From positions 20,896,001 through 20,960,000 of the forward strand of contig CM059432.1 in NCBI GenBank assembly GCA_030390025.1: DNA of 64,000 bases. The letters are read 5' to 3'. Shown here piece by piece: positions 11,241 to 55,030 of this stretch; positions within the stretch are counted from its first letter, which is position 1; each line of letters opens with the position of its first letter. This DNA comes from Squalus acanthias (taxonomy: Eukaryota). The notes beneath the pieces were generated by a model. That model made no database searches. It saw nothing but the letters and a program-made list of their open reading frames with translations, and was not told the origin of the DNA. The position numbers and the translations under genes were made by a program.

Positions 11241-12698
11241 GGGCCGTATTTTGCGACCCCTACTGGTACATACGAGGTGTGTATGCACCCGTAGGGGTCG
11301 CGCAAGTTCCGGGTTTAGGCATGCGAAGCGCATGTGCTAAAACCTGGAACTTGTGATCTGTCAAGAATCTCCCTGTCAGATCACCTGCATCCCCGGGAAA
11401 TGGGCCTCCGCGGGTAGAGAGATGCGCTATTTGCCCAACTTCCGCCAGCTGAATGCCCGTGAAATTCTTACACCTGGTAAAAGCATAAGAGTTTTAAAAA
11501 ATAGAAAAATAAAAGTTTATCACTCATTTATACATTAAAAAACCTGTCCAATAAGGTAAGTTTATTTTCACCCTGTTAAAACATATAGGGGAAAAAATTT
11601 GGTTGCTTTGCGCCTCCCGTTATCGCCCTAAGAGGGCGCTAACGGGGCGCAAAGCAACTACCGCCCGGGCGCGGCGCCGCCAACACCTACCGCGAAATTC
11701 AGCGGGAGGTTAGCGACGGCGGTAACCCTTAGCGCCCCGCGGCGCTGCGCCGCCGGTGATGACGTCATCGTTGTGCACAGCGCCCCGCTTGCGCCCCGGC
11801 CGCGATCTTCGGTAGTGCCCCCTGACTTACTGCCGGAAGCTATGTCCGACGGGGTCAGGGGGGCCTACCTGCGGCCAGGGTGGCGCTAATTAAAGGCGAG
11901 GTGCCGGGCGGCCATTTTTGTTGCTGGACGCCTGCCAGCACCTGCCCCCGTTGCCATCCCCGGCCTTCTGAGAAGCCCCCCCGCGGAGTGCCGGCTGCGC
12001 TCCGTGAGCCCGGCACTTCTCTTCAGTGCTGGGCTCTTTTGCCGGCACTCCGATACCTAGTGGCCCAGCTGGGCGCCGGGATGTGCAGCGCCAGGCCCCT
12101 CCCCTTTAAGAAGGGGAGGAAGGCCTGCAGTACCGTGGCATATTCCCTCGCAGCGCCCCAAGAGGGAGGCGGGGCGCTTCCAGTAGCGCCCGCTTCCCTC
12201 TTGGGGCGCTACCATTCAATTTCGGCTGTGGGGGTGCTAATTTTTTCAGGCCGCTAAAGCAAGTTCGCACCCCAACGGGGGCGCGACTCAATTTTTTCCC
12301 CATATTATTTTTTTCAATTTTTTTTAAAAAAATTAAAAATATTTAATTAAATGGCATTTTAATTAATTTTAAATATGTAATTGTTTACATTTATTTCATG
12401 TTTTTGTGTACTTTTTAAGTGATGCCCATTCATACTTATGGAGATTCCGTACGTACGGACCTCCCATAAGTATGAATGAGGATTCCCCTTCTTTTATTGG
12501 TTGGGCCGGCCCACGTGATCCCAGAGGCGCTTGCGAACCGCCTGTGCCCCTGGGATTCGTGGGCCTCTGCCCACGGGTACCCGGAGAGGCCCAGGAGCAC
12601 GAGTCTCCGTACCTCCCGGGCCTCCAGGTAAATTCGAAGATTTTTTACAGGTCGGTGGCATCCGCCCGCGGGAAGCCTCCGACTGCAAATTTTGGGCC
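11241..12698. mobile_element. Harbinger-type MITE (family B), host of a nested family A MITE
   Basis: Imperfect TIRs gggccgtattttgc / gcaaattttgggcc; TSD ATT; shares internal blocks (ggcccacgtgatcccaga) with the inverted element at 46785. Confidence 0.75.
11588..12301. mobile_element. Family A MITE (inverted relative to 9399), nested in family B element
   Basis: TIRs ggggaaaaaatt / aattttttcccc; TSD ATA on both sides. Confidence 0.88.
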
Positions 12699-13909: not shown

Positions 13910-14262
13910 GGGGGAAAAATTGGGTCGCGCCCCCTTTGGGGCGCTAACTTCGCCGGGGCGCTACTTCTAGCGCCCTGAAAAAGTTAGCACCCCCACACCC
14001 GAAATTGAATGGTAGCGCCCCAAGCAGGAAGTGGGGCACTACTGGAAGCGCTCCCTCTCCCTCTTGGGGCGCTCCTATTGAATATTGCGGCGCTACGTGC
14101 AACAGCGCCACGCGTGTCGGCATGTAGCACTGCGGTACTACAGGCCTCCCTCTCCAATTAAAGGGGAGGGGCCTAGCGCAGTGCGCACCGGGGCCTTGCT
14201 GGACCACCGGGGAGCGGGGTGCCGACAAAAGAGCCCGGCACTCAAGAGGAGTGCCGGGCTGA
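13910..14262. mobile_element. Truncated family A MITE
   Basis: ata|gggggaaaaattgggtcgcgcc start; homology ends near 14262 with no second TIR. Confidence 0.8.
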
Positions 14263-15903: not shown

Positions 15904-16047
15904 TGATATGTATTTATAAACGCCCAGCCAACGGGGCTACAGACATCAACTTCCCAATGAAAGGATGGAGAGGAATGGTTGACTGGGCGAGGAATTCTGA
16001 AGATAAAGTTACTGTTCCAAAAAGCATCTTTTCAACAGGATCAACAG
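15904..16047 (+). CDS. ADGRB1: ADGRB1 coding exon (144 nt): (V)[47 protein letters not shown]
   Basis: poly-T + cag acceptor, gtaaga donor; phase 1/1; BAI-family FPMKG motif. Confidence 0.93.
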
Positions 16048-17944: not shown

Positions 17945-19963
17945 AAATCCAAGACTGGCAGTCAAAACTGTAATCGAACAATGGACTGCCTTTAAAGAGG
18001 AGATGGTTCGGGTACAGTCGAGGTACATTCCCACGAGGCGGAAAGGTAGGGCAACCAAAGCCAGAGCTCCCTGGATGATGAAAGAGATAGAGAGTAAGAT
18101 AAAGCAGAAAAAGGGGCGTATGACAGATGTCAGGTTGAGAATACAAGTGAGAACCAGGTTGAATATAGAAAGTTAAGAGGGGAAGGAAAAATGAAATAAG
18201 ATGGGCAAAGAGAGAGTATGAGAATAGACTGGCAGCTAACATAAAAGGGTAATTCAAAAGTCTTCAATAGGCATATAAATAATAAACGGGTAGTAAGAGG
18301 AGGGATAGGGCCGATTAGGGACCACAAAGGAGACCTACGCATGGAGGCAGAGGGCATGGCTGAGGTACTAGAAAGGCTGGCTGGACTTAAAAGTCACCAG
18401 GACCGGATGGGATGCATCCTAGGATGCTGAGGGAGGCAAGGGTGGAAATTGCGGAGGTACTGGCTATAATTTTCCAATCCTCCTTGGATACGGAGCTGGT
18501 GCCAGAGGACTGGAGAATTGCAAATGTTATACCCTTGTTCAAAAAAGGGTGCAAGGATAAACCCAGCAACTACAGGCCAGTCAGTTTAACCTCGGTAGTG
18601 GGGAAGCTTTTAGAAATGATAATCCGCGACAAAATTAACAGTCACTTGGAAAAGTGTGGATTAATTAAGGAAAGCCAGCACGGATTTGTTAAAGGCAAAT
18701 CGTGTTTAACTAACTTGATTGAGTTTTTTGATGAGGTAACAGAGAGGGTTGATGAGGGCAATGCGGTTGATGTGGTGTACATGGACTTCCAAAAGGCGTT
18801 TGATAAAGTGCCACATAATAGGCTTGCCAGCAAAATTGAAGCCCATGGAATAAAAGGGACAGTGGCAGCACGGATATGAAATTGGCTAAGTGACAGGAAA
18901 CAGAGAGTAGTGGAGAATGGTAGTTTTTCGGACTGGAGGAAGGTATACAGTGGTGTTCCCCAGGGGTCAGTACTAGGACCACTGCTTTTCTTGATATATA
19001 TTAATGACTTGGACTTGGGTGTACAGGGCACAATTTCAAAATTTGCAGCTGACACAAAACTTGGAAGTATAGTGAACAGTGAGGAGGATAGTGATAGACT
19101 TCAAGAGGACATAGACAGGCTGGTGGAATGGGCGGACACGTGGCAGATGAAATTTAACACCGAAAATTGCAAAGTGATACATTTTGGTAGGAAGAACGAG
19201 GAGAGGCAATAAAAACTAAAGGGTGCAATTCTAAAGGGGGTGCATGAACAGAGAGACCTGGGGCTATATGTGCACAAATCATTGAAGGTGGCAGGGCAGG
19301 TTGAGAACGCGGTTAAAAAAGCATACAGGATCCTGGGCTTCATAAATAGAAGCATAGAGTACAAAAGCAAGGAATTACGGTGAACCTTTATAAAACACTG
19401 GTCTGACCTCAACTGGAGTATTGTGTCCAGTTCTGGGCCCCGCACTTTAGGAAGGATGTGAAGGCCTTAGAGAGGTTGCAGAAAAGATTTACAAGAATAG
19501 TTCCAAGGATGAGGGACTTCAGTTACCTGGATAGACTAGAGAAGCTGGGGATGTTCTTCTTAGAGCAGAGAAGGTTGAGAGGAGATTTGATAGAGCTGTT
19601 TAAAATCATGAGGTGTCTAGACAGAGTAGATAGAGAGAAACTGTTCCCATTGGCGGAAGGGTTGAGAACCAGAAGACACAGATTTAAGGTGATTGGTAGA
19701 ACAATCAAAGGTGATATGAGGAAAACTTTTTTACGCAGCGAGTGTTTCTGATCTGGAATGCACTGCCTGAAAGGGTGGTGGAGGCAGATTCAATCGTGGC
19801 TTTCAAAAGGGAATTGGATAAGTACCTGAAGAAAAAAAAATTGAATGGCTACGGGGAAAGGGCGGGGGAGTGGGACTAGCTGAAATGCTCTTGCAGAGAG
19901 CCGGCACGGGCTCGACAGGCCAAATGACCTCCTTCTGTGCTGTAACCATTCTATGATTCTATG
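17945..19963 (+). mobile_element. 5'-truncated CR1 LINE; ORF2 reverse transcriptase disrupted by stops and frameshifts
   Basis: PEDWRIANVIPLFKKG, NYRPVSLTS, YMDFQKAFDKVPH, SGVPQGSVLGPLLFLIYINDL, SKFAADTK; 3' attctatgattctatgat tail. Confidence 0.93.
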
Positions 19964-20268: not shown

Positions 20269-22752
20269 TATGGGTTATCAGGAGAAGTACAATAAAGATC
20301 CTACATGGGACATGACGATTCCTGGGCTATGGAGATGTCATTGTCAATCAATGCCAATGATGAATATGGGTTGTAAAATTAATTCGATATTCTGGAGTTT
20401 TTGGAAGGATACAGCGAAAAAATGTATTGAATCTTTCCTTGGGAGATGAAACGGATTGGGTGCAGCCCATGATAGTTGATTGTACATAAAAATATACGAA
20501 AAATGACAGACAGGAAAGATACTGGTCCATCCAGCCTGTTCCATATAATTGTGCATCATAATACATAGAAACCTGGAAGGAACAGGCTTGGTGGGCTGCA
20601 TGTTTCCATGTCCTCTCATGTTCTTCAATGTAAACATAAAAAGAATGGAATAAAAAAAATATATTTGGTTCAGCAAACCAGCTCCTTCCACAGACCATTG
20701 TCAATCTACCATAGTATGGTCTCTACCCCACTAATTTGATTTATGGCATAATTACTCCTTAATCTTCAGACATAATCAAGGGGAAACTCCAGGATACTTA
20801 ACCATTCCCATACTTGAACAGTTCAATCTGACCTGTTGCCTTCCATCGACAACCCCAGCCCCATCAACGCAGGAGTTGCCGTGTACACTGCCGAGATTCC
20901 CAAGGCTGAAATCTCTACACACATGCTTTGGCAGTAAATAAGCCTGTCGCAAAAAGCTGTTCTGCTTTTTAAGACCTGTAATGTTGCTATGATTTGTCCC
21001 TTGTGGATCTCCTGTACAGAACTTACAACATTATATGGGACACAGGTAGACACTTCAGAACAACAGAAAACAACAGAAAAATACTATCCCCAAAAGGAAC
21101 ACTACTGCCAACAGTATAATACAATTTCACGGTGGTTCTCCATGTAATGCATTGATCAGTCTCTGGTGCTTCCCTGTGGAATGGACTGCTCAGTAGAGTT
21201 TGAAATCGAGTTGAGTCGTTGGAGTTGTTTGATTCTAGATTAAGATTCATAGTACTCACAGTTAGGATGGCATGAATTTCAACCTGATTTTTTTTTTTAA
21301 AGTCATGAGAAGGGCACCAGGACTTTTACAGTTTAGTGCCTCAATGTAGCCAACAGTCCTCAATTTCACCCTGAGTTTACTCTGCTATAGGCCTTTGAAG
21401 ACCTGAGCAGCACACAATTTCCTGGCCTCAATTTGGAGGGAGCACCAATTCCAACCCTACACTCACACAACATATTTAAAATAGCTGAATCTGGGGGGAA
21501 AAAACAGCCAGTTCAGTGAAGATCAAATCAGGCACTTGTGTGAAGCCTGACTTACCAGGAGCAAGCAGAGTGAGCTTCTGTTGAAGGATCTGAAATGTTA
21601 ACCTTTTATTTCTCCAATCTTAAGACACAGCACCATATTATTACAATGGAATATCTGTAGCTGATGTATTCTGTGCACTGGGAGAGGGTTCTTGTGCTAG
21701 TTTTTAATTCAAGTGCATGCAAAACAAATGTAAACTGGCAAACATGCTGTGTATTCCAGCATTTCCTTTGTTGGTTAGGTATTGCACAATACTATTTTTC
21801 AAAAGTCGACCATGATTGAAAGCTGTCATTTTTATCAGGCACCCTTTCGTAAATCGTCCTGCTTCCTTTTACCCTGTCGCCTGCAGTAATGGGGCTTTGT
21901 GCAGTGACATATGAGCTTGTCATGTCTCCTGTTATAAAGACCTGGCTGCCTTTTCTTATGTATTTCACATCTTATGATCTGGGGACAAAAGCCTTCTGCA
22001 GCTGTATCAGTTTCTTTTATCAAATTTGCTTGAAAGGCTCTTGTCTGATGCCGACCTGAGTTGAATGTTACTTGAAGCAGAAATTGGAGAGACATCTCCA
22101 ACATTTCCAATGACAGCCAACATGGCCCTTTTGTGAAGAGACATTTAAAATCTACACATGTACCCTGACCTTCAATAGTTCTGTTTCTGTTAGGGTCTAG
22201 ATCCCTTTGCAGTGAGGTTTCTGTGAAAATTGCATTTTTTTTTGTCATTTTAATTTTAATTAATTTTTGGGTGGGGCTTGACTTCTTTGTGCTTAAGTGT
22301 GAGGGAAGTTAGCACTAGGGAATGGAACTCTTCCTTTTTAGGCACTCAAGCCCCAATTTTAACCGAAGCCACCTGGTGGGAATAGGGCAAATTCAGGTCA
22401 GCAAACCCATTTTACACCCTGCCTGATGATACTCGCCATTGAAGTCAATGGAGTGTAAATCTGGGCGTGGTGTAAAACAGGCGTCTGTCCCGAAGCTGGG
22501 CGGTTAGGTTAAAATTGAAGCTCGAGTGGCAGTATCAAGCGTTATTAGGTCAGCCATCTGTCGAGCAACACCTCCTCTACTTAGCCCTAATCTTGGAAGA
22601 GTAGTCTTCACTGCATCAGTGAGCCATTCCATTCCTCAATATATTCATCTTTGTGAGATTGTAAGGCCAGGTTTTAAGGCAAAGTTTTGTGCTGCAAGCT
22701 AATATTATACGGAAACTAGCTTAACATTTCCCGAATACATATATTATAGAAT

Positions 22753-22961
22753 TCTGGGTTTCCTAGTTCTGACGAAAGGTCATCGACCTGAAAGGTTAGC
22801 TCTGTTTCTCTCTCCACAGATGCCTCAGTTCTGACGAAAGGGCATCGACTTGAAACGCTGACTCTTTTTCTCTCTCCACAGATGCTGCCTGACCTGCTGA
22901 GTATTTCCAGCATTTTCTGTTTTTATTTCAGATTTCCAGCATCCACAGTATTTTGCTTTTG
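22753..22961 (+). mobile_element. Short non-coding Penelope terminal-repeat element with two tandem hammerhead motifs (retrozyme-like)
   Basis: Flanked by 11-bp direct repeat tattatagaat (22742-52, 22962-72); nearly identical to the Penelope 3' end at 54565-54668; internal 62-nt duplication. Confidence 0.85.
22765..22863 (+). ncRNA. Tandem minimal type I hammerhead ribozyme motifs (degenerate)
   Basis: Copy 1: agtt-CTGACGA-a-aggtc/atc/gacct-GAAA-ggtt-agct. Copy 2: agtt-CTGACGA-a-agggc/atc/gactt-GAAA-cgct-gact. Each has substitutions around stem III or the cleavage site. Confidence 0.65.
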
Positions 22962-23562
22962 TATTATAGAATCCTTACAGCTATTATAATGAATAGACTT
23001 TCATCCCATCAGTTTGGGTTAGATTTGAACCCTGGACATAAAAGGCTGGTTGGTATACTAATTTCCCTTTTCCTAATTATTTATATTAGTTTTTCATTTC
23101 TCCACTGAATTTTAGGTGCAGGGAAGGGAGGGCGATAATTTAAACTACTGACCATAAACACTGTAGAGCAGCAATCAATAAAGCAATAGAATATTAACAG
23201 TAGTGCAAGTCAGAGGGTGTTGTGCTAATACTGTGAAGTGGTCTGGTCAGGCAGCACCTTGAGTACTGTTTGGGGCACTTAGACACAAGGGATATTCAAA
23301 TCCTGGAGATGGTGCCGTAACGCATTTGCAGAGGACTGAGTTATGAGGAAAGATTGGAAATACTTAGGCTATTCAGCTTGGAAGAATGTGGCTGAGAGGG
23401 ATCTTCACAGAAGCATCTAAGATAGTAAACGGCACAGGAAATATAAATCCAGAGGACTATTTCAAACTCAACTATGACAGTAGGAAAAGAGGGCACGAGT
23501 TCAACCTAGTAAAAAGTAAACTTAGGACCAATGTCAGGAAATTGTGACCAGCATGTGGAATG

Positions 23563-26008: not shown

Positions 26009-28536
26009 GGGCTGAATTTTGCCGGCGCTCAGAGGGTGGGTTCGGAGGCGGGTCTGCTGTCAAAATGGCAGTGATTGACAGCGGGGCGGAAGTCCGCTCT
26101 GAATCCGCCTCCGTGTCAGTTTCCCAAGTGCCGGCTCTGCCTGCGGTTTGCAGACCCGGCACTAAGCGGTGGTTCAGGCAATTGAGATACTTAAGAAGCT
26201 GCTTAAAGGTATTTAAGCAGCATTTTACCAGGTCCTAACGATTTTTCCATGTTTTTTACGAGGTTCCCGGTGCCCGGGGATCATGTCAGGTAAGTGTGTC
26301 GGGTTCTCAATGACTCTGTATTGCTGTGAATAGTTGACTGCTGCAAAAGTGGTATAAAAGCTATCATTTCACAGCTGTTCAATTTCCAATCTTAGAGGCT
26401 GGAGCCTTCAGGATTTGGAATACACTTTTCAGCTTTATGGAGGTTTGAAGTGTTTGGAGCAAACTCTCTATCCAGTGTCACCTTCTTGGAGCAACCTCTC
26501 TTACCACTGACAGATCACTTCTGTCATCTCAGGTTCAGCTGCCATCTATTCCAGCAGCATCGGTGTCCTTGAAAAAATCTCACCTTGGCCCTCAGAATCC
26601 CACCATGATCAGCCCCAACACCAACATCACCAGCATCACTAGGCACACCAGCAGCACCAACAACAGCACCAACCTTCTCCGCAATCATCTGATGCTGCAC
26701 AGGACACAGGGCATCAACACCCGACCACATTGCTGCCCAGGAGGCCAGGGATGGCCACACCATGGCCAGATTTACTTCAGTTGACGCTGTACACCCTGGC
26801 TGCCACATGATGCGCCGTATTGGCACCACCCCACACCAACACCATAAAGCATCCCTACAATGCCCAAGCCATTCCTTTCACACTCATTACCATTGGGCTG
26901 TGGGGGATGGGGTACCGTTATGTCTCACCATTCACTGCAACTCACTAAGCCACTTCCAATGGTGCGCACATATCTATCCAAGAAGGCAAAGGGGTAAAAA
27001 TTGAGTCGCGCCCCATTTGGGGCGCTAACCTCGCCGGGGCGCGACTTTTAGCGCCCCGAAAAAATTAGCGGCCCCGCGCCGGAACTTCAGTGGTTGCGCC
27101 CCAAGAGGGAAGCGGGGCGCAACTGGAAGCAGCCCGCATCCCTCTTGGGGCGCTGCGAGTGAATATCCTGGCGCTACGTGCCGCAGCGCCACGCGCTGTG
27201 GCACGTCGCGCCGCGGTATTGCAGGCCTTCCTCCCCTTCTTAAAGGGGAGGGACCCTGCGCAGCGCGAACCGGGGCCCAGCTGGGCCCCCAGGGATCGGG
27301 AGTGCCGGCAAAAGAGCCCGGCACTCAAGAGAAGTGCCGGGCTCTTGGAGCGCAGCCGGCACTTCACGGTGGGGGGGCTTCACGGGGGCCGGGGGCAGGT
27401 GCTGGCAGGCGGCCAGCAACAAAAATGGCCGCCTGCCACCTCCGCTTTAAATATCGCCGCCCCGGCCGCACGTACGCCTCCCTGAACCCGTCGGACATAG
27501 CGTCTGGCGGTAAATCAGGGGGCGCGACTGAAGATCACGGCCGGGGCGCGAGCGGGGTGCTGCGTACGGCGATGACGTCATCGCCGGCGGCGCAGCGCCA
27601 CAGGGCGCTACCGGCTGCCGCCGCCGCTAACCTCCCACTAAATTTTTCGGGAGGCGTGGGCGGCGCTGCGCCCGGGCGTTAGCTGCTTTACGCCTCATTA
27701 GCGCCCTCTTAAGGCGCTAACGGGAGGCGCAAGCAGCTGAATTTTTCCCCCAAAGTGTTGAAAATAAAGATTTTAATGTTTGACAATACATTAACAGAAA
27801 CTTTCCATGAACATTGGCAATAGCACCCAACTGCCTACCCTTGTGTCTTGTATGATTGGACAAGGATGAGGGTGAGTGTGAGAGGTGGCTAGTGAGATGA
27901 GGAAGTGATAATGTAGATAGAGAGGGATGGGTGGAGGTACAAGGTAAGTTGGTATGAGTAAGGATGTGCAGGAGTAGGGTAGGGAAGGCAGAGTGATGGG
28001 AATGTGATGAGTGGTACAGCAGGATGAGGTTGAGTGTGGCTTTGCAGTAACGTTTCGTGATCTACTGAGATCATTGAAAGGTTTGCGCCACTGCAGCCTG
28101 GTCCTCCTGAAGACATCCCTGCTTGTGCCCTCCTGTGCAATGTGCAACCAGGCTGCGTTGGTCTCCTGGGGAGGTCTCTTCCACCCATTGGAAGGGAAGC
28201 GAACCTCCCTGCGTGCTGTGACTTCCTCCATAAGCATATGGAGGGAGTCATGGGAGAGCCTGGGTGCAACCCTGCACCTTTGTGCAGTGCTTGTCAGTGT
28301 CTGCATCACCTCAATGCTGCAGAACACTGACGGCACAACTGTCAAAATGATTGTGGACATGGTCCCTTGAAGGAAACCCGCTTCCTATTAATTGGCCGGA
28401 AACCTCGCAGGGCAGGCTTAACAAGCCCAATCAACATAAAATCTTGTTGGAGGCCGGGATTGAGACAGATGTGAGGTCCCCACACGCCACGGACCGAGCC
28501 CGCCCCGGACCTGCCGAAGTTGGAAAAATCCAGCCC
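26009..28536 (-). mobile_element. Non-autonomous PIF/Harbinger element with both ends intact and a Myb/SANT-like exon (about 28040-28290, minus)
   Basis: TIRs gggctgaatttt / aaaatccagccc; TSD TGA (26006-08, 28537-39); ORF 27791-28360 contains RVAPRLSHDSLHMLMEEV...AWLHIAQE...WRKPFNDL; no transposase seen. Confidence 0.85.
26991..27751. mobile_element. Family A MITE nested in the Myb-bearing Harbinger
   Basis: TIRs ggggtaaaaattg / gaatttttccccc; TSD AAA, confirmed by the empty site (gcaaagtg) in the paralogous copy near 3745. Confidence 0.9.
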
Positions 28537-32651: not shown

Positions 32652-34061
32652 TATGTATAACAAGAAGGCACAAAAATATATATTATGGTATTGGTATACT
32701 GATTAGGTTCGATTTAGAAAGCGTTAACTCCCAAAGCCAACTGAAATGAAAATCAGACGGTTGCCATAGTAATTGGGAATGTTAATTAGGAATCAGTGGG
32801 AATCTTTGAGTGCCATCCTTAGCATTTCATGGCATGATGACAGAATGATTTCTATATTAAGATTTTAATATCATCACAAAAGGAATTAAAGTGGAAGATG
32901 GAAAATAATCTTACACAGAGAAAGGTTCGAATGTTGAAATCTCTGCCATGAACCATTATTGAATAAATTATTTTAAAAGAGAATTATATATGTATTTGAA
33001 AAATAGAAATGTTAAGAGTGTGGAGGACAAACAGGAGAGTGTGTTTAGACTAGGTGGCTCACGTGGAGAAAACCAGTGGCAGAGCCTTGGTGGGCCAAAT
33101 GGCCTGTTTCTGTGCTGTAACATTCAATGATTCCAGTCATTTTCTCCTTGAACAATGAAACTGATCCCTCAGTAACTCTGAACTTGCATCTTGTGAGATC
33201 TACAGTATCTTTGCAGAGCACCACTAACAATGATTTGCATTGGACCACATTCCCTGACTGTGTTGAGTATCTCCCTCCCTCTTTGGAGGAGAGGAGCCGT
33301 TCGGACTCTTCTCTGGGGATCTCTCGCACATGAGATTGCGATCTCCCACATAGGATTGTGCTCTCGTGTGTTGGCTCCTCTCAGCATTCATCTCAGGGAA
33401 GTGCGTGAAGAAGGTACAATGCAGATTCACTAGGATACTGTCTGATACAAGGAATTACAAATATGAAGAACAACTTGAAAAATTGGGTCTTGTTCATCAG
33501 AACAATGCAGATTACAGGGTGATGAAATAGAAGTGGTTATAATTCTGAAAAGATGGGACAAGGTAGGAAGAAGCAGACTGTCTCCAGTAGTGGGACTAGC
33601 TGAAGTGCTCTTGCAGAGAACTGGCACAGGCTTGATGGGCTGAATGATGGCCTCCTTCTGTGCTGTAACCATTCTATGATTCTAGTAAAAGGGAACAAGG
33701 GACCATAGGTAGATTAAATTTAAGAGATTTAGAACTGAGGGCTGGAGAAACCTACAGAATTGGGAGGCTGTGGCATTCAGTCCTACAATGAGTGGTTAAG
33801 GCAGAAACTATGTCAACATTCAAGATTAGATTGGATAGGTGGTTGAAGGAAAAGGGTTTGAAGGGATAGAGGAACAGAATGAGTAAATGGAGGGCAAACG
33901 CCGACACGGACTGTTTCTGTGTTGGAACTCGTTTGTATATCTATGTTTATTATAGAGGTGGGATTAATCCCAGCCCGGACAGTGGTAGTGAAATCCCTCT
34001 ATTAAAATTTTAACTACATATACTTCTGGTTTGAAGTGTTACCTTAGTGACTGAAAATAAC

Positions 34062-34171
34062 ATGAGAAGTCGCACAACACCAGGTTATAGTCCAACAGTT
34101 GGACTATAACCTGGTGTTGTGCGACTTCTCATTTTTGTCCACCCCAGTCCAACACCGGCATCTCCGCATCA
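34062..34171 (+). mobile_element. Short Penelope-type terminal fragment with a perfect 35-bp inverted repeat
   Basis: Arms 34062-34096 and 34098-34132; flanking direct repeat tgaaaataacatg (34052-64, 34172-84); same family as 37498. Confidence 0.85.
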
Positions 34172-34516
34172 TGAAAATAACATGGCTCGGTTGCTGTTCA
34201 GCATTCGCAGCTTTATCAACCAGTTGTCCTACTATGACTGGTTGAGTCTTCATTTCATTAAGAAAATAACCTAACTGTATTGTAGCACACAGTCAGTCAA
34301 AGCCACAATGTTACAGTAAGATTCTCTGCCCTGCTCATGATGGGTAACCAGCAACACCAACGTAATTAATTTAAGTCAGCAACTGACACAGAAGCTGTCA
34401 ATAACACAGCCACAGTAGTAAGACCCAGTTATTTTATGCTTTGACTTAAAACAATTAGTACTGCACAGTGTATTTTAAATCATTAACATATTGCTTGTCT
34501 TTTGATTCAATTTCAG

Positions 34517-34619
34517 GAACGCCACAGTGCTGAATTCCAAGATAATCTCGGTTATTGTGAAGCCTTCTCCAAAATCTTTATCCAGCCCTTTGGAAATTGA
34601 ATTTTCTCATCTATATAAT
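34517..34619 (+). CDS. ADGRB1: ADGRB1 coding exon (103 nt): [34 protein letters not shown]
   Basis: tttcag acceptor, gtaagt donor; phase 2/0; GAIN 'LNSxIIS' motif. Confidence 0.93.
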
Positions 34620-35411
34620 GTAAGTTAATGTATTCAAATATGTACAGTGCAACAGAAAATGCTTTCAGTCACAACACTTTGAATTAGGTTCATTTGGAAC
34701 TGTCGCCCTTAAGTGCACATTTTATTCCTAACTGAAAATAACTGTGCCGATGTGAAAATTAAAATATTATTTCATCAGTGAAATAATGCTTGAAAAACAG
34801 CCCTTGGTTAATAATGAGGAACTTGAGCAGACCTGCCTGTGTGTTCTGTGCACAAATGGTTACAAGTTATTTCGGTCTTGCCAAGGAAACCGTGGAAACA
34901 GCAATAGCCAGTGCAGTAAAACGGAACGTCTTTCATTAATTCCGGGAGTGCAGTGTTGCTTCCTGCACTTTCAAAAAAAAAATAACCAATTCAATTTCTC
35001 TATCTCACTGGGGTGGAATGTACATGTGAGAACTGAGAAGTCACATGGCGATCCCTTTAACTAGATTACTACAGCACGGTGAAATCTTCTGGACAACCAT
35101 TTAATATGCGAGTGCTTCGTTTAAATATTAACTGTACTCTAAATCATGTAAATATCCCCAGTGCAATGCCCCCATTAGTTTAGCGTGTGATCGTGTTGTG
35201 AATTCCGCTTATCTATCTGGAGTGAGTATTAACGGTAATGTCATGCATGAAGGAGCTTTTAAAGGGGAAAGCTTTTTGACTGATGTTTTTTCTTAATTTC
35301 CATTTTTTCAGTGCCTTGTTACTATTTTTTTCTGTTTTGTTACCCCCGGGAGCTAGGGGTCGTATTGTTATCGACATTAAAACATGTAGGGAGTGTTTCT
35401 GTAAAGGCAGA

Positions 35412-35732
35412 CGGGTACGGTAGCGTAGTAGTTATGTTACTGGAGTAGTAATCCTGGGGCCTGGAATCACAACATTGCAGTTTGTGAATTTTAATTCAGT
35501 TTAAAAAAAAACGACTGAATAAATCTGGAATAAAAAGCAGGTATCAATAAAAGTGACCTGGAAGCTTTCGGATTGTCGTAAAAGCCCAACTGGTTCACTG
35601 ATGTGATTCTATGATGTCCTTCAGGGAAAGGAAACCTGCCATCCTTACCTGGCCTGGCCTACACGGGACTCCAGGCCCACACCAACGTGGTTGACTCTTA
35701 ACTGGCCTCTGAAATGGTCGAGCAAGCCACTC
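35412..35732 (+). mobile_element. tRNA-headed SINE/LINE 5' region copy
   Basis: ggtacggtagcgtagtagttatgttactgg...gttgactcttaactggcctctgaaatg, homologous to 43219-43530. Confidence 0.75.
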
Positions 35733-36197
35733 AAAAACCGTGTCCAGAAATGGTTTATGACTTTATCCACCTACAGTCTCACTTTCAGGGAATTATGTAT
35801 TTGCATCCCTAGGTCTTTCAGATCCTTCAGAGTTTTGAGAGTGTCTTTGATGGCAGGAGATCTAACCAGACAGTTAGGTGCTGAGGTCAGTGCACCTGAT
35901 CTGGGAGCTCCTAATTTCTTGGTGATTAACGTGAATGATGGGAATATCTGATCATGGCTGACTGACCTCTGCCTCCAATTCTCCCATTTGTATTCCTGTT
36001 GAGCAAGGCATTTGCACCCAGAGCCTTACAAAATTTACCCTAGTGATACATCGAATCTGCATTGAGAAGGGATTGAATTAGTAACTCACAAAGGATTAGC
36101 AGGAATTTAGGCATGCGCGAGATTTATTGTTTAAATTTTAATATGCATCTTGGGTGGAATCAACTGTATTTTAACAAGTGTTCATTTTCTTTAACAG

Positions 36198-36241
36198 GGC
36201 ACTACAAATCAGTCGTGCATCGCATGGGATGAAACAGACAC
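36198..36241 (+). CDS. ADGRB1: ADGRB1 coding exon (44 nt): GTTNQSCIAWDETD(T), start of the GPS motif
   Basis: taacag acceptor, gtaagt donor; phase 0/2; CxxW of the GPS. Confidence 0.92.
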
Positions 36242-37497
36242 GTAAGTTTTTAAAAATGTAAAATTCAGTCTACTAACTAAAAATGGCCTCAAAGAACAAT
36301 GCGTTATGTCCAGTTGGAAGTTTAACGAGGAAATTCACTCATATTGCAAAAAGAGTCTTTTTGATTCAGTGTTGGTGAGATTTTCTTAACAGATCTATTA
36401 AATTCATTCATATTTTTATTTATCCAGAATTTCCTTTTTATTTTTGTCATTTGCTCCCCCTCCTTGTCTTCAGACACTGATTGATGTGTTGGGACTGGTA
36501 TCCATATGCCCGCAGTCCTCTGGTATCTCATCCAAGTAGCCATTCTTCCCGTGTGAGTCTAGGCAGTCAATGTCAGGTGGCTAATCATCACGAGGGGCAA
36601 CAAAGCCAAACCTGATCCTATCTTCAATCATATGCACTTTCCAGCAGGAACTTGAGCTGATTTCTTCCCTTTCCTAGCCTGAAATGCTGTGGCCAGTTCC
36701 AGCCCTAGCTGCTGCCTGCTGAGATCAGCTCCGTCAGCACAGATCAGCAATCAAACTTGAGACACTTCTGGTCTGACTGGCTCAGTGCCACATGGGGTAG
36801 TACATTTGCTCACAAATCTATCGGGTCACTTTTCTCATTCCAACTGGTGCTATTTTTTTTATGACAAACTGTTCTCTTTTATAGTATTGCATCTTTATGG
36901 GTGTTATTATTTTGTATGACTGCAAGTCACTCTCAAGCAAAGAGAATTAATCTTGATGGAAATTTTGAGCCCTAAATGTGTTTCGAGGAGTTTTAACTGA
37001 AGCGGTTGCTCAGTTGGCATGTGTACTGATCGTTTTCCAGTCGATTTTATCAGCATCAGTTGTGGCTTCCATTACTTATACATAATATTTAGACCAAGAA
37101 GCTCAGATGCCACAGGACTGCAAATGTCAAGGCTCATCAACCTCTATTGCTCGCTCAGTGCAGCCTCTGTCATCCTTTCTGTTAATGGGTGAAGGGGCCT
37201 GAGTTCAGCAGCTTGACTCAGTTGATGGCTTTATCTACCCGAGGGATTCAAATACATAATTCTCTGAAAGTGTGAGTGTAGGTAGATGAAGCCATAAAGT
37301 TGAGATCAAATTGACTGAAGTCTATCACATTCAGGAGAATGAATTGAACCTTAATTGACTTTGCCTTGCCTAATACACTGCGAAAAATGAAAGTCTAGAT
37401 TACACCCATTTGAAATGCTAACGTGTCAGGGCTAATGAACTCTGAAGTCCTGCCAGTAAATATTTGATTCACACTCAAATCCAATGCATATAATGAA

Positions 37498-37738
37498 ACA
37501 AAAATGAGAAGTCGCACAACACCAGGTTATAGTCCAACAGATTTATTTAAAATTACAAGCTTTCGGAGCTATCGATCGCCCCTTCTTCAGGTAAAGTTAC
37601 TGTCTCAGTAACTTTACCTGAAGAAGGGGCGATCGATAGCTTCGAAAGCTTGTAATTTTAAATAAATCTGTTGGACTATAACCTGGTGTTGTGCGACTTC
37701 TCATTTTTGTCCACCCCAGTCCAACGCCGGCATCTCCG
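37498..37738 (+). mobile_element. Palindromic Penelope-type terminal-repeat element with a hammerhead motif in each arm
   Basis: 105-bp arms 37498-37602 and 37606-37710, 3-nt loop, one mismatch; flanking direct repeat tataatgaaaca (37489-500, 37739-50). Confidence 0.88.
37614..37655 (+). ncRNA. Minimal type I hammerhead ribozyme motif (mirror copy on minus strand at about 37553-37594)
   Basis: ttac-CTGAAGA-a-ggggc/gatcgata/gcttc-GAAA-gc-TT-gtaa: core boxes present, stem I ttac/gtaa, stem II, palindromic AAGCTT stem III. Confidence 0.72.
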
Positions 37739-38555
37739 TATAATGAAACAGAGAGGCCACTGCTTTCTTGACCACTCTACACATTATACTTGAGCATCTT
37801 TTTTTCCTGATTATTTTTCCTCGCATCCATTTTATTCTTTCTAATTTTTCTCTTTCCTTCTGCTAAAGGCACGGCATGTTGGGGAATGGTTCCACGAGGT
37901 GCCCGCAGCCCTATGGTACCTCAACCTAGTGGCCATTCTTCATGTATGAACTGTTGGTATGCTATTTGACCCTGAAAGGTGCAGTTCTTCTGTACTCACC
38001 CAAAATCCATATGCACTGTTCAGCATAGGTCACGAGAGAGATCAGGAAACGACATTTATTCCAGATTACTTCAGCTGATCCTAAACAGCTGCAAAGTTAT
38101 TTAAGAGGTAAATAACTGCAAAGCAAGAAGAGATGTTGGGAGCAACGAGAGGCAGTCATTACCATTCTTACCTTACCTGCTGATTTATGAAACTACCTCC
38201 AGTATACATAGATGAGAGACAGTCGCTTACTTCTAACTACAACAAAGTATCACTTAATCTTTACCATAAGCTATATATCATGTATCAAACCAATAGAATG
38301 TCTCTGCCACTTTCAACAGCTTTGTTAACAATACAATTACCATCCCTCCCCCTTTTGCTGACCATATCTCCAACCTGTTGACTTCACCTCCTCAAATTAC
38401 TCAGTTCACCCTACTCAACTCGGCAATCACCGTTAGTGTCTAATGGGATGCAGCAGCGTCTCAATCAAAGATGCAGCCACATTTTAAATGCAATAAAACA
38501 AGAGGAATCTGACTTTATTTTCCATCTTTAAGAGTGTTAAGGCCTCAAACATAAT

Positions 38556-43218: not shown

Positions 43219-45741
43219 CGGCAGCATAGTGGTTATGTTACTGGACTAGTAATCCAGAGGCCTGGACGAATAATCCAGAGACGTGAGTTCAAATCCCACC
43301 ATGGCAGCTGTGGAATTTAAATTAAGTTAATTAAATAAATCTGGAATAAAGAAAGCTAGCATCAGTAATGGTGACCATGAAACTATCGGATTGTCATAAA
43401 AACCCATGTGGTTCATTAATGTCCTTTAGGGTAGGAAATCTGCCATCCTTACCTGGTCTGGCCTATATGTGACACCAGACCTACAGCAATGTGGTTGACT
43501 CTTAACTGCCCTCTGAAATGACCTAGCAAGCCACCCAGTTGTACACAACCGTTACGAAAAACAATAATAAGAATGAAACCGGATGGACCACCCGGCATCG
43601 ACCTCGGCACCGGCTTCGGATATGACAACGGCACACCCAGCCCAGTCGAACTGGCAAAGTCCTCCTCACTAACATCTGGAGACTTGTGCCAAAATTGGGA
43701 GAGTTGTCCCACAGACTAGTCAAGCAACAGCCTGACATAGTCATACTCACAGAATCATACCTTTCAGCCAATGTCCCAGATTCCTCCATCACCATCCCTG
43801 GGTATGTCCTGTCCAACCGGCAGGACAGACCCACCAGGGGTGGCGGCACTGTGGTATCCAGTCAGGAGGGAGTGGCCATGGGAGTCCTCAACGTTGACTC
43901 CGGACTCCATGGCTTCAGGTCAAACATGGGCAAGGAAACCTCCTACTGATTACCACCTATCACCCTCCCTCAGCTGATGAATCAGTACTCCGCCATGTTG
44001 AACACCACTTGGAAGAAGCACTGAGGGAAGCAAGGGCACAGAATGTACTCTGGGTGGGGGACTTCAATGTCCATCACCAAGAGTGGCTTGGTAGCACCAC
44101 TACTGGCCAAGCTGGCTGAGTCCTGAAGGACATAGCTGCCAGACTGGGCCTGTGGCAGGTGGTGAGAGAACCAACACGAGGGAAAAACCTACTTGACCTC
44201 ATCCTCACTAATCTACCTGTCGCAGATGTATCTGTCCATGACAGCATTGGTAGAAGTGACCACCACATAGTCATTGTGGAGATGAAATCCTGTCTTCAGA
44301 CTGAGGACACCCTCCATTGTGTTGTGTGGCACTACCACCGTGCTAAATGGGACAGATTCAGAACAGATCTAGAAGTTCAAAACTGGGCATCCGTGAGGTG
44401 CTGTGGGCCATCAGCAGCAGCAGAATTGTATTCCACCACAATCTGTAACCTCATGGCCCGGCATATCCCTCACTCTACCATTACCATCAAGCCAGGGGAC
44501 CAACACTGGTTCAATGAGGAGTGCAGAAGAGCATGCCAGGAGCAGCACCAGGCATACCTACAAATGAGGTGCCAACCTGGGGAAGCTGCAACACAGGACT
44601 GCATGCATGCTAAACAGCAGAAGCAGCATGCTATAGACAGAGCTAGGCAATCCCACAATCAATGGATCAGATCAAAGCTCTGCAGTCATGCCACATCCAG
44701 TCGTGAATGGTGGTGGACAACTAAACAACTAACGGGAGGAGGCTCCATGAATATACCCATCCTCAATGATGACGGAGCCTAGCACGTGAGTGCAAAAGAC
44801 AAGGCTGAAGCGTTTGCAACCATCTTGAGCCAGAAGTGCCAAGTGGATGATCTATATCGGCCTCCTCTTGAGTGCCCCAGCATCACAGAAGCCAGTCTTC
44901 AGCCAATTCGATTCACTCCACGTGATATCAAGAAACGGCTGAGTGCACTGGATACAGCAAAGGCTATGGGCCCTGACAACATCCCAGCTGTCGTGCTGAA
45001 GACTTGTGCTCCAAAACTAGCCGCACCTCTAGCCAAGCTGTTCCAGTACAGCTATAACACTGGCATCTACCCGACAATTTGGAAAACTGTCCAGATATGT
45101 CCTGTCCACAAAAAGCAGGACAAATCCAATCCAGCCAATTACCGCCCCATTAGCCTACTCTCAATCATCAGCAAAGTGATGGAAGGTGTCATCAACAGTG
45201 CTATCAACGGCACTTACTCACCAATTACCTGCTCATCGATGCTCAGTTTGGGTTCTGCCAGGACCACTCGGTTCAAGACCTCATTACAGTCTTGACCCAA
45301 AAATGGACAAAGGAGCTGAATTCCAGAGGTGAGGTGAGAGTGACTGCCCTTGACATCAAGGCAGCATTTGACCGAGTGTGGCATCAAAGAGCTCTAGTAA
45401 AATTGAACTCAGTGGGAATCAGGGGGAAAACTCTCCACTGGCTGGAGTCATACCTAGCACAAAGGAAGATGGTTGTAGTTGTTGGAGGTCAATCATCTCA
45501 GCCCCAGGACATCACTGCAGGAGTTTCTCAGGGCAGTGTCCTAGGCCCAACCATCTTTAGCTGCTTCATCAATGGCCTTCCTTCCATCATAAGGACAGAA
45601 GTGGGGATGTTCGCTGATGTCTGCACAGTGTTCAATTCCATTCGCAACTCCTCAGATAATGAAGCAGTCCATGCCCGAATGCAACAAGACCTGGATGACA
45701 TTCAGGCTTGGGCTGATAAGTGGCAAGTAACATTCGCGCCA
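43219..45741 (+). mobile_element. tRNA-headed LINE: Pol III-like head, short leader, then a decayed APE endonuclease-RT reading frame (from about 43656); 3' end absent
   Basis: KVLLTNIW...PDIVILTESYL...RQDRPTRGGG, GDFN, PTRGKNLLDLILTN, SDH (APE); KAMGPDNIP, NYRPISLLS, ALDIKAAFDRVWH, GVSQGSVLGPTIF, MFAD (RT). Confidence 0.88.
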
Positions 45742-46115
45742 CATCACTTTGCTGATGATTCAGAGTAGGCTGATGATTGAGAGTAGACTGATGGGGCGGT
45801 AATTGGACAGATTTGCCCTGCTTTTTCTGGACAGGACAGACCTGGGCAGTTTTCCACATTGTCGGGTTATAGCTGTACTGGAACAGTTTGGCTAGAGGTA
45901 CGGCAGCTGGGATGTTGTCGGAGCCCATAGCCTTTGCTGTATCTGACAACTTCATGGCCACATTTACTAATACCAGCTTTTTGTTCCAGATTTTTTTTAA
46001 TCCAAATTCAAATTCTCAAATTGTCGTGGTGGGATTTGAATTTGCGTTCTCATGGTTATTAGTCCAGGCCTCTGGATTACTCGTCCAGTAACATAACTAC
46101 TGCACTACTGTATCC
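45742..46115 (-). mobile_element. Minus-strand, internally deleted 5' remainder of the same LINE family, including the tRNA head
   Basis: Reverse complement gives DTAKAMGSDNIP...LAKLFQYSYN and the head gtagttatgttactggacgagtaatccagaggcctggac...ttcaaatcccacc. Confidence 0.75.
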
Positions 46116-51794: not shown

Positions 51795-52109
51795 GAAATA
51801 GGAGCAGGAGTCGGCTATTTGACCCCTCGAGCCTGCTCCGCCATTCAATGAGATCATGGCTGATCTTCTACCTCATCTCCACTTTCCTGCACTATCCCCA
51901 TATCCCTTGATTCCCTTAATATCCAAAAATCTATCGTTCTCTGTCTTGAATATACTCAACGACTGAGCCTCCACAGCTCTCTGGGGTAGAGAATTCCAAA
52001 GATTCACCACCCTCTGAGTGAAGAAATTGCTCCTCAGCTCAGTCCTAAATAACCGACCCCTTATTCTGAGACCCCTGGTTCTAGTCTCCCCAGCCAGGGG
52101 AAACATCCT
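51795..52109 (-). mobile_element. CR1 3' end (left half of a CR1 split by the Penelope insertion)
   Basis: Minus-strand MFPLAGETRTRG...NFFTQRVVNLWNSLPQRAVEA; continues at 54670. Confidence 0.85.
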
Positions 52110-54669
52110 TTCCCTCTCTGACCCCGAACGATCAGTCCTTAGCAAAGACCTGAGCTTCATCCCCTTACGCCCCCATCTCAATGAATTTCGAGCTCGGCAC
52201 GATGCTGAGCTCTTTTTCCGCCGCCTACGTCTCCATGCCCACTTCTTTGGCCAGGAGTCTTCCCCCCGCACAGCTGACCCTTTCTCCCATTTTCAGAACT
52301 CTTGTTCTACCTGGACCCCTCCCTCTGGCCTCTTAACCTCTCTAGATCTTTTCATTGCAAACTGCCAGCGTGACATCGGCCGTCTCAATTTCTCTGTTCC
52401 CCTCACCCACTCCAACCTACCTCCCTCTGAACTTGCAGCACTCCATTCTCTCAGATCCAATCCCAACATTGTCATTAAACCTGCCGACAAGGGTGGTGCT
52501 GTTGTTGTTTGGCGAACTGACCTCTACCTAGCGGAGGCTGAACGCCAACTCTCCGACACCTCCTCCTATCTCCGCCTGGACCATAACCCCACTACTGAAC
52601 ATCAAGCCACCGTTTCCAAGACCGTCACTGACCTCATCTCCTCTGGAGATCTTCCCTCCACGGCCGCCAACCTCATAATTCCCCAACCCCGCACAGCCTG
52701 CTTCTACCTCCTTCCCAAGATCCACAAGCAGGACTGCCCTGGCAGACCCATCGTTTCAGCCTGTTCTTGCCCCACAGAACTATCTCTTCCTATCTCGACT
52801 CTATTTTTTCTCCCCTTGTCCAGTGTCTTCCCACCTACATCCGCAACTCTTCCGACGCCCTCCGTCACTTTAACAGTTTCCAGTTTCCTGGCCCCAATCA
52901 TCTCCTTTTCACTATGGACGTCCAATCCCGCTACACCTCCATCCTCCACCAGGATGGCCTGAGGGCGCTCCGCTTCTTCCTTGAACAGAGGCCCAACCAG
53001 TCCCCATCCACCACCACCCTCCTCTGCCTGGCTGAACTTGTTCTCACATTGAACATCTTCTCCTCTGACTCCACTCACTTCCTCCAAATTAAAGGTGTTG
53101 CTATGGGAACCCGCATGGGTCCCAGCTATGCCTGTCTTTTCATGGGCTATGTGGAACATTCTTTGTTCCAGTCCTACTCAGGTCCCCTCCCTCACCTGTT
53201 TTTCCGGTACATTGATGACTGTATCGGTGCTGTTTCCTGCTCTCGCCCTGAACTAGAAAATTTAATTCACTTTGCTTCCAATTCCACCCTTCCCTCACCT
53301 TCACATGGTCCATCTCCGACTCTTCCCTTTCCTTCCTCGACTTCTCTGTCTCCATCTCTGGGGATAGGCTATTGACAAACATTCACTACAAGCCCACTGA
53401 CTCCCACAGCTACCTGGACTACACTTTCTCCCACCCCGCTTCCTGTAAGGACTCTATTCCATTCTCCGAGTTTCTCCATCTCCACCACATCTGCTCTGAC
53501 GATGCCACCTTCCACACCAGTGCTTCTGACATGTCTTCCTTTTTCCTCAACCGAGGATTCCCCTCTACTGTGGTTGACACAGCCCTTGACCATGTCCGTT
53601 CTATTTCCTGCACTTCTGCTCTCACCCCTTCCCCTCCCTCCTGGAACCTCGATAGGGTTCCCCTTGTCCTCACCTTTCACCCCACCAGCCTCCACATTCA
53701 ACGGATCATCCTCCGCCATTTCGGCCACCTCCAGCATTATCCCACCACCAAACACATCTTCCCCTCACCTCTCAGCATTCCGAAGGGACCGCTCCCTCAG
53801 CGACACCCTGGTCCACTCCTCTATCACCCCCAACACCCCTTCCCCTTCGCCTGGCACCTTCCCGTGCAAGCGCAGGAGATGCAACATATGCCCTTTTACC
53901 TCCACCCTTTCCACTGTCCAAGGCCCCAAACACTCCTTCCAGGTGAAACAGCGATTTACTTGTACTTCTTGAAATTTAGTATACTGTATTCGCTGCTCAT
54001 GATGCGGTCTCCTCCACATTGGGGAGACCAAACGCAGATTGGGTGACCGCTTTGCGGAACACCTCCGTTCAGTCCGTAAGCGTGACCCCGAGCTTCCAGT
54101 CGCCTGTCACTTTAATTCTCCGCTCCACTCCCACTCAGACCTCACCGTCCTCGGCCTCTTGCATTGTTCCAATGAAGCTCAATGTAAGCTCGAGGAACAG
54201 CACCTCTTCTTTCGATTAGGCACTTTGCAGCCTTCTGGACTCAACATAGAGTTCAACAATTTCAGACCATAACCTCTGCCCCTATCCTTTTTTTTCCATT
54301 TATTTTATTTATTTATTTTTTTTCTCTCTCCCACATGGCAGCTGTCTTTCATTCTGCCAGTGCCATTTACACTTCATCTAGAGCCATCTTTTGTTTCTTA
54401 ACTTGTCCCATTACCATCTCCTTTTGCCTTGCACCATCTCTTAATCTCCCTTAATCTTTCCTGCCTTCCATCCTATCACAGACCTTCCCTTTTGTTCTTT
54501 CCTCCCCTCCCACCTTTCCCTGTCCCTGCACTTGCTTAAAAACCTGTTCCATCTCCAGCTTTTTCCAGTTCTGACGAAGGGTCATCGACCTGAAACGTCA
54601 ACTCTGTTTCTCTCTCCACAGATGCTGCCTGACCTGCTGAGTATTTCCAAGCATTTTCTGTTTTTATTA
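52110..54669 (+). mobile_element. 5'-truncated Penelope-like element (Neptune-like): RT + GIY-YIG endonuclease, frameshifted
   Basis: KPADKGG, FYLLPKIHK..PGRPIVS, TMDVQS, GVAMGTRMGPSYA, FRYIDD, HYKPTD, Cys linker CKRRRCNIC, VYCIRC...IGETKR, RFAEH; 12-bp TSD gggaaacatcct (52098-109, 54670-81). Confidence 0.92.
54567..54603 (+). ncRNA. Minimal type I hammerhead ribozyme in the Penelope 3' terminal repeat
   Basis: agtt-CTGACGA-a-gggtc/atc/gacct-GAAA-cg-TC-aact: intact core, stem I agtt/aact, GUC cleavage triplet ending at 54599. Confidence 0.8.
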
Positions 54670-55030
54670 GGGAAACATCCTCCCTGCTTCTACCCTGTCA
54701 AGCCCTGTAAGAATTTTGCATGAGATCACCTCTCATTCTTCTAAACTAGAGAATATAGACCTAGTCTACTCAATCTCTCCTCCTAAAACAATCCCCCCAT
54801 CCCAGGAAATAGTCTGCTGAACCTTTGTTGCACTCCCTCTATGGCAAGTATATCCTTCCTTAGGTAAGGAGACCAAAACTGTACACAATACTCCAGGTGT
54901 GGTCTCACCAGGGCCCTATATAATTGCAGTAAGACGTTTTTACTCTTATACTCAAATCCTCTTGTAATAAAGGCCAACATACCATTTGCTTTCCTAATTG
55001 CTTGCTGTACCTGCATGTTAACTTTCGTGA
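54670..55030 (-). mobile_element. CR1 fragment (right half of the split CR1)
   Basis: Minus-strand KANGMLAFI...LYRALVRPHLEYCVQFWSPYLRKDI. Confidence 0.88.

Follow-up and report, generated by a model that had tools for sequence, protein, structure and literature searches.

Host gene and structure of the insertion

The DNA analysed here (hereafter the window) is a stretch of 64,000 nucleotides of the Squalus acanthias genome (NCBI GenBank assembly GCA_030390025.1, contig CM059432.1, positions 20,896,001 to 20,960,000 of the forward strand), and positions are numbered from its first letter. The window covers part of ADGRB1. In a homolog search, the 47-aa exon at 15906-16046 had shark ADGRB1 as its best matches (96% identity), and tblastn with two shark ADGRB1 proteins located seven exons on the plus strand, the last of them at 36198-36241. 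BAI3 and ADGRB2 are the nearest solved relatives in the PDB, but the homolog search settled the identity of the host gene as ADGRB1. The exon following 36198-36241 was not found within the window. A hairpin-forming insertion starts 1,248 bp downstream of 36198-36241, inside an intron of at least 27 kb. A first-pass annotation of this DNA had placed the hairpin in the ADGRB1 pre-mRNA about 1.3 kb downstream of an exon, in agreement with the exon map. The features of the locus are as follows (the sequencing runs and organisms are described in the next section).

36198-36241, plus strand: ADGRB1 exon nearest upstream of the hairpin (tblastn)
37489-37500, plus strand: left copy of the target-site duplication (TSD), 12 bp, its last 3 nt also forming the first 3 nt of the inverted arm (organisms C and D have the empty site)
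37498-37602, minus strand: left arm, inverted 5'-truncated copy of the element end, 105 nt (repeat search and blastn)
37553-37594, minus strand: minimal type I hammerhead motif, C3 at 37590, predicted cut after 37557 (descriptor match and folding)
37603-37605, no strand: 3-nt loop at the head-to-head junction (arm coordinates)
37606-37710, plus strand: right arm, forward 5'-truncated copy of the element end, 105 nt (repeat search and blastn)
37614-37655, plus strand: minimal type I hammerhead motif on the strand of the ADGRB1 pre-mRNA, C3 at 37618, predicted cut after 37651 (descriptor match and folding)
37711-37738, plus strand: one-sided 28-nt tail (tail-flank junction in runs X1 and X5)
37739-37750, plus strand: right TSD copy, 12 bp (direct repeat and empty site)

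The two arms were recovered by a repeat search of the window and are 99% complementary, the lone mismatch being 37566/37642. They begin 12 nt upstream of the hammerhead C3. The 28 nt to the right of the right arm have no pairing partner. An exact 12-nt direct repeat (83% A+T) bounds the hairpin, and the insertion between its two copies is 238 bp long. As RNA, the hairpin folds at -199.5 kcal/mol (z = -30.1), and none of 200 shuffled sequences was equally stable. The near-perfect 105-bp hairpin with a 3-nt loop, one mismatch, a short tail and a 12-bp direct repeat, as first described, was thus recovered in all its parts. An exon scan marked 37591-37651 as splice-bounded.

A sister insertion, empty sites and age

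When the right arm and tail were used as a blastn query, a second copy of the family was found in the window.

34052-34184, no strand: independent sister insertion of the same family as the 37489 hairpin (blastn; site unoccupied in organisms C and D; X1 contains both junctions)

The sister copy lies 3.4 kb upstream of the 37489 hairpin, with the same orientation of tail and TSD and a different tip. Its TSD is 13 bp long (34052-34064 and 34172-34184; 77% A+T), a 1-nt loop separates its arms of 35-38 nt, and its tail measures 36-39 nt. The sister copy is truncated downstream of the ribozyme and carries no hammerhead. Hairpin anatomy is therefore present in both family copies of the window and the hammerhead in one of the two. 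The head-to-head arrangement of both copies bears out the earlier suggestion of an inverted 5' copy.

Contigs of four public runs were compared with positions 33600-38200. Runs X1 and X5 represent the best-matching organism (organism A; two samples from two studies), X7 represents organism C and X9 organism D. At the 37489 site, in one contig each from organism C (X7) and organism D (X9), 37488 is immediately followed by 37739; the 12-mer is present once, and 250 nt (12 + 238) are absent. Empty sites with a single TSD copy were found for both insertions (37489 and 34052) in both related organisms compared. Because organisms C and D carry an empty site with one repeat copy, the 12-bp direct repeat is a true target-site duplication. 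The 37489 insertion is real, and it is also young, being absent in two related organisms and having only one difference between its arms. In organism A, one contig in X1 and one in X5 start at 37713, within the tail, and extend across the right junction into the flank. None of the contigs listed from the four runs spans the left junction or the tip of the 37489 hairpin; short-read contigs break at perfect palindromes.

The unique flanks just upstream (36834-37141) had a depth of 6-28. Over the arms, summed depth, which is not a copy number, came to about 1e6 in each of X1 and X5 and to about 1e5 in each of X7 and X9, as befits an abundant repeat with a larger presence in organism A.

Probable assignment to Penelope-like elements

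Judged by its anatomy and its motif, the family most likely belongs to the Penelope-like elements (PLEs). Its copies display an inverted 5'-truncated head-to-head copy, a one-sided tail, an A+T-rich TSD and a hammerhead in the terminal repeat. This combination corresponds to the published PLE insertion pattern and supports the Penelope-like origin proposed in the first-pass annotation. No RT/GIY-YIG ORF of the hairpin family was found beside either copy or elsewhere in the window, and a search by sequence patterns for a coding partner gave no match in viral, metagenome and prokaryotic contigs. A 5'-truncated PLE copy is not expected to keep such an ORF.

An inverted 5'-truncated copy and a tail of 30-40 bp are common features of PLE insertions, and the formation of tandem and inverted PLE ends has been described as unresolved (PMC8557442). 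In rotifer PLEs, an inverted pLTR lies inside an 8-10-bp TSD with a 31-bp tail, and head-to-head palindromes have been read as self-priming (PMC3846280). The EN+ PLEs described in these reports (Arkhipova et al. 2013, PMC3846280; Craig et al. 2021, PMC8557442) resemble the hairpin in the head-to-head inverted 5'-truncated copy and the junction palindrome. Their tails measure about 30-40 bp and their TSDs about 10 bp, compared with 28 nt and 12 bp at 37489; the tail there is slightly shorter than the published range. The hairpin differs from them in that only the terminal repeat is left, the arms are equal, the host is a shark and no ORF linked to the family was found. PAc, the Poseidon element of Anolis carolinensis (Frangieh et al. 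2024, PMC11167929), has a two-ended 3' boundary, an A+T-rich target and a hammerhead in its terminal repeat, like the hairpin family. In the PAc experiments, both target strands were cut and extended with a preference for A+T-rich targets, two adjacent RT start sites bounded the tail, and hammerhead mutants inserted normally (PMC11167929). However, PAc is coding and full-length and has been characterised in vitro, in work that leaves the origin of the inverted arm unresolved, whereas the hairpin is a non-coding stump. An earlier description of this shark family, or of palindromic turtle or shark copies, was not found in the literature searched, a scope that leaves out most subscription papers as well as Repbase and Dfam, so that its absence is not evidence of novelty.

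Minimal hammerhead motifs

Minimal hammerhead (min-HHR) motifs were defined by a published descriptor: a stem I of 3-7 bp, the first core box, a stem II of 3-7 bp, and the second core box ending in NNUH (PMC4209133, Fig. S7). Four matches were found in the window (37618, 22769 and 54571 on the plus strand and 37590 on the minus strand), whereas 200 dinucleotide shuffles gave 0.01 matches on average. The plus motif of the hairpin has a stem I of 4 bp, a stem II of 5 bp with a loop of 8 nt, and N17 at 37651; in the minus motif, N17 is at 37557. The first-pass annotation had assigned a full hammerhead core to each arm. A descriptor-matching motif does occur on each strand, but its core is of the minimal type lacking a real helix III and is not the full canonical one. 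Nor did Rfam recover it: no model matched at the gathering score anywhere in the window, and no hammerhead model was among the 17 matches at E <= 10 over 37400-37850. These 17 weak matches were to miRNA, sRNA and lncRNA models below threshold that mostly respond to the hairpin, and they were not taken to indicate a miRNA gene.

The hairpin motif has an extra nucleotide after A9 (between 9 and 10.1), a G10.1-C11.1 pair and a palindromic 15.2-16.2, all of which are found outside the descriptor in the same report. In matching the descriptor, the extra nucleotide and the G10.1-C11.1 pair, it resembles the min-HHRs of metazoan PLE terminal repeats (Cervera and de la Pena 2014, PMC4209133), with which it also has an AT-rich 3' flank in common. 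The closest entry listed in Fig. S3 of that report is from Chrysemys picta bellii, with both core boxes and U17 identical; the figure has no cartilaginous fish entry, and the hairpin host is a shark. The loop II of 8 nt, which is self-complementary, is a difference from the min-HHRs described there. A second motif on the opposite strand also occurs in a bracovirus PLE (PMC4209133). In Schistosoma, dual min-HHRs on opposite strands are about 100-700 bp apart, whereas the two motifs here share one perfect hairpin and are separated by only 28 bp. According to the same source, single min-HHRs showed no detectable cleavage, and dimers and trimers cleaved at a low level.

The two arm sequences are near-identical, so that no covariation is available between them. 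A family variant in X1 (loose-end consensus of 15 contigs, agreement 0.71) has N7 changed and loop II shortened to 4 nt, both of which are free positions, and no compensatory pair change was seen in this one consensus. Compared with this variant, loop II of the 37489 copy (37631-37638) is 4 nt longer, and its self-complementarity favours non-ribozyme dimers in folding. The sequence immediately upstream of the hammerhead (37606-37608; loose-end consensus) and the start of the tail (37712-37720) resemble 3' splice acceptors. In Drosophila Penelope, an intron ends at hammerhead helix I (PMC4209133).

Predicted folding and fate in the pre-mRNA

Equilibrium folds of the growing plus-strand transcript were computed at nine lengths. 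Arm-arm pairs were predicted with mean probabilities of 0.966-0.998, and pairs of ribozyme stems I and II with probabilities below 1e-22. It had been argued that a transcript from either strand makes the antisense arm first and that the ribozyme would consequently be sequestered in a long duplex. The geometry is as claimed, and sequestration is what the growing-transcript folds predict. For isolated arms, stems I and II of the minus motif reached a probability of 0.79-0.97 and those of the plus motif about 0.01. The plus motif carries the single arm difference (37642) and is predicted to misfold even alone. Sequestration, as modelled, would be redundant, because each transcript contains one sense motif, and this is of the type reported not to cut as a monomer. 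With one sense motif per transcript, no dimer can therefore form in cis. Double-hammerhead dimers were also predicted to lie above other dimers in energy (-13.1 vs -27.1 and -18.7 vs -30.5 kcal/mol), in values that count secondary structure only and not the tertiary contacts of the core. Cleavage by hammerhead dimers was reportedly described by Lunse et al. in 2016.

The 105-bp duplex contains 64 adenosines and, by analogy, is a plausible ADAR or Dicer substrate. Penelope is heavily A-to-I edited in a lizard, and palindromic repeats are hyper-edited without a partner in a frog (PMC5625713). In Drosophila, inverted Penelope copies yield siRNAs (PMC3681739). Such ADAR targeting would be a consequence of the hairpin and not evidence of design.

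Origin of the hairpin and alternative explanations

We conclude, with a probability of about 0.88, that the insertion at 37489 is the 5'-truncated terminal repeat of a Penelope-like retroelement, whose mirror arm was likely made during integration and whose hammerheads are likely functionless passengers. In the proposed course of events, the GIY-YIG nuclease of the element would nick each strand of an A+T-rich target, the two nicks lying 12 nt from one another. Two closely spaced positions on the element RNA would then serve as start sites for reverse transcription, and the sequence bounded by them would become the one-sided tail. Copying would halt 12 nt before the hammerhead core, on its upstream side. 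By folding back and priming itself, the cDNA would next be copied into symmetric arms with a loop of 1-3 nt, and some 3 nt of microhomology would serve to join the inverted arm to the second target end. Should the intron be transcribed, the hairpin is predicted to zip up during synthesis, leaving the ribozyme unfolded and the duplex an incidental ADAR substrate.

A 3-nt microhomology between the TSD end and the arm start was observed in both copies, and the start of the 37489 TSD matches the continuation of the element, as seen in the sister copy, at 5 of 7 nt. Fold-back copying is favoured over the joining of two independently truncated cDNAs because the arms are equal and the loops are 1-3 nt. 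L1 twin priming gives non-overlapping parts (PMC11702581). The tip bases do not fix which strand folded, and a simple first-cDNA snap-back is not matched in every detail.

Other junctions of the family were collected as joints whose shorter side comprised only 20-29 letters, matched at 85% likeness, and 15 of 460 were considered. Among these 15, six fell within the 37489 copy: three symmetric fold-backs elsewhere in it, two joints offset by 29 nt, and an unequal one with a short left arm and a core-bearing right arm. The symmetric fold-backs had offsets of 0, 1, and 0 after allowing six ambiguous letters, and none of the three contained the hammerhead core; none of the six joints had the core in both arms. 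Given such short matches, these joints are supporting rather than decisive evidence. In X1, single-copy flanks had a depth of about 13, but an asymmetric inverted junction (37551 to 37608, with five other letters between) reached 2026, a sign that one inverted form or more may have been amplified as a ready-made unit.

This recurrent junction also bears on the possibility that the insertion is a non-autonomous hairpin element that resembles MITEs or retrozymes and moves as a preformed palindrome. Such an element would be short, non-coding, TSD-flanked and very abundant, as the hairpin family is (bin depth of about 1e6 in X1, compared with 11-20 in the flanks, again summed depth and not copy number). 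However, MITEs and cut-and-paste DNA elements have terminal inverted repeats at both ends and a constant structure, whereas the ends here are not terminal inverted repeats, a tail being present on one side, and the arm lengths (105 vs 35-38 nt), tips and outer arm ends of the two neighbouring copies are not the same. Animal non-LTR retrozymes (bioRxiv 10.64898/2026.07.22.740005) resemble the hairpin in being non-coding and PLE-derived with a type I hammerhead, but they consist of at least two head-to-tail tandem units, each with its own hammerhead, and the hairpin is a single head-to-head pair. We therefore consider a mobile hairpin very unlikely. An assembly fold-back artefact is scarcely credible. 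Chimeric reads can give near-perfect hairpins, and the tip and left junction are the parts that the listed contigs leave unspanned. Nevertheless, the whole structure lies inside one TSD with an empty site in two other organisms, the arms differ at one base, the tail is one-sided, the tail-flank junction recurs in runs of two samples from two studies, and both junctions of the sister hairpin are present in X1.

The first-pass annotation had favoured a self-silencing design. Spelled out as a rival explanation, the double-ribozyme palindrome would have been selected to shut off the ribozyme or to feed ADAR or Dicer, regulating ADGRB1 or the element family. The predicted sequestration in the growing transcript and the editing and siRNAs known from other Penelope copies would fit such a design. 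Against it, the same fold-back occurs without a ribozyme in the sister copy and at other junctions of the family, where the tips vary, and the insertion is young. Each transcript has one sense motif, and a lone motif is not expected to cut; the plus motif is predicted to misfold without the help of the opposite arm. We regard selection for self-silencing as highly improbable, and the two ribozyme motifs are likely a by-product of the known insertion pattern rather than a self-silencing device.

The tip of the 37489 hairpin is 12 nt upstream of C3, the junction of depth 2026 is 10 nt upstream, and two units of a second family begin about 5 and 10 nt upstream. It is conceivable, though we think it rather unlikely, that copying of the hairpin family stops preferentially at the 5' edge of the hammerhead, and that integration would thus make ribozyme-spanning hairpins, an intronic source of dsRNA that edits or silences the family in trans. 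If the preferential stop were true, thousands of junctions would read out how PLEs build the inverted arm. A genome-wide tally of junctions, and not a single copy, would bear on how PLEs form inverted ends. The locus itself is one of very many truncated copies and is likely inert. Its modest value is that of a clean specimen: both insertions have known empty sites, and therefore TSDs, microhomologies and tips are exactly readable.

A second hammerhead-bearing family and other elements in the window

The motifs at 22.7 and 54.6 kb belong to a different family, as previously noted, since neither gave a blastn match to the right arm and tail of the 37489 hairpin. They lie in the following elements.

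22742-22972, plus strand: second-family partial-tandem stump inside an 11-bp TSD, with two hammerhead-like units (22769 and 22831)
52098-54681, plus strand: second-family RT-coding element, 5'-truncated and broken, with the min-HHR at 54571 in its 3' repeat and a 12-bp TSD (52098-52109 and 54670-54681)

Both units of the stump have altered second core boxes; they are the units that begin about 10 nt (22769) and 5 nt (22831) upstream of C3. The 52098-54681 element ends without the tail seen in the copy at 22.9 kb. In Pfam searches, it matched RVT_1 only below the cut-off, and no GIY-YIG model was matched in the element. We take it to be PLE-like from motifs (DKG, a cysteine linker and a GIY-YIG-like end) that Pfam did not confirm. 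It was rejected as the coding partner of the hairpin family, its terminal repeat being that of another family. The second family links a min-HHR to an RT-coding, TSD-flanked element in the same window, which speaks for the Penelope-like reading of the hairpin.

Several further repeats were noted. RVT_1 fragments at 18391-19209 and 45154-45765 on the plus strand are probably LINEs. Myb/SANT-like ORFs occur at 3094-3663 and 27794-28384, and a GC-rich hairpin family recurs at 12152-12210, 14004-14083 and 27081-27168; together we presume these ORFs and hairpins to be remnants of Harbinger-type transposons.
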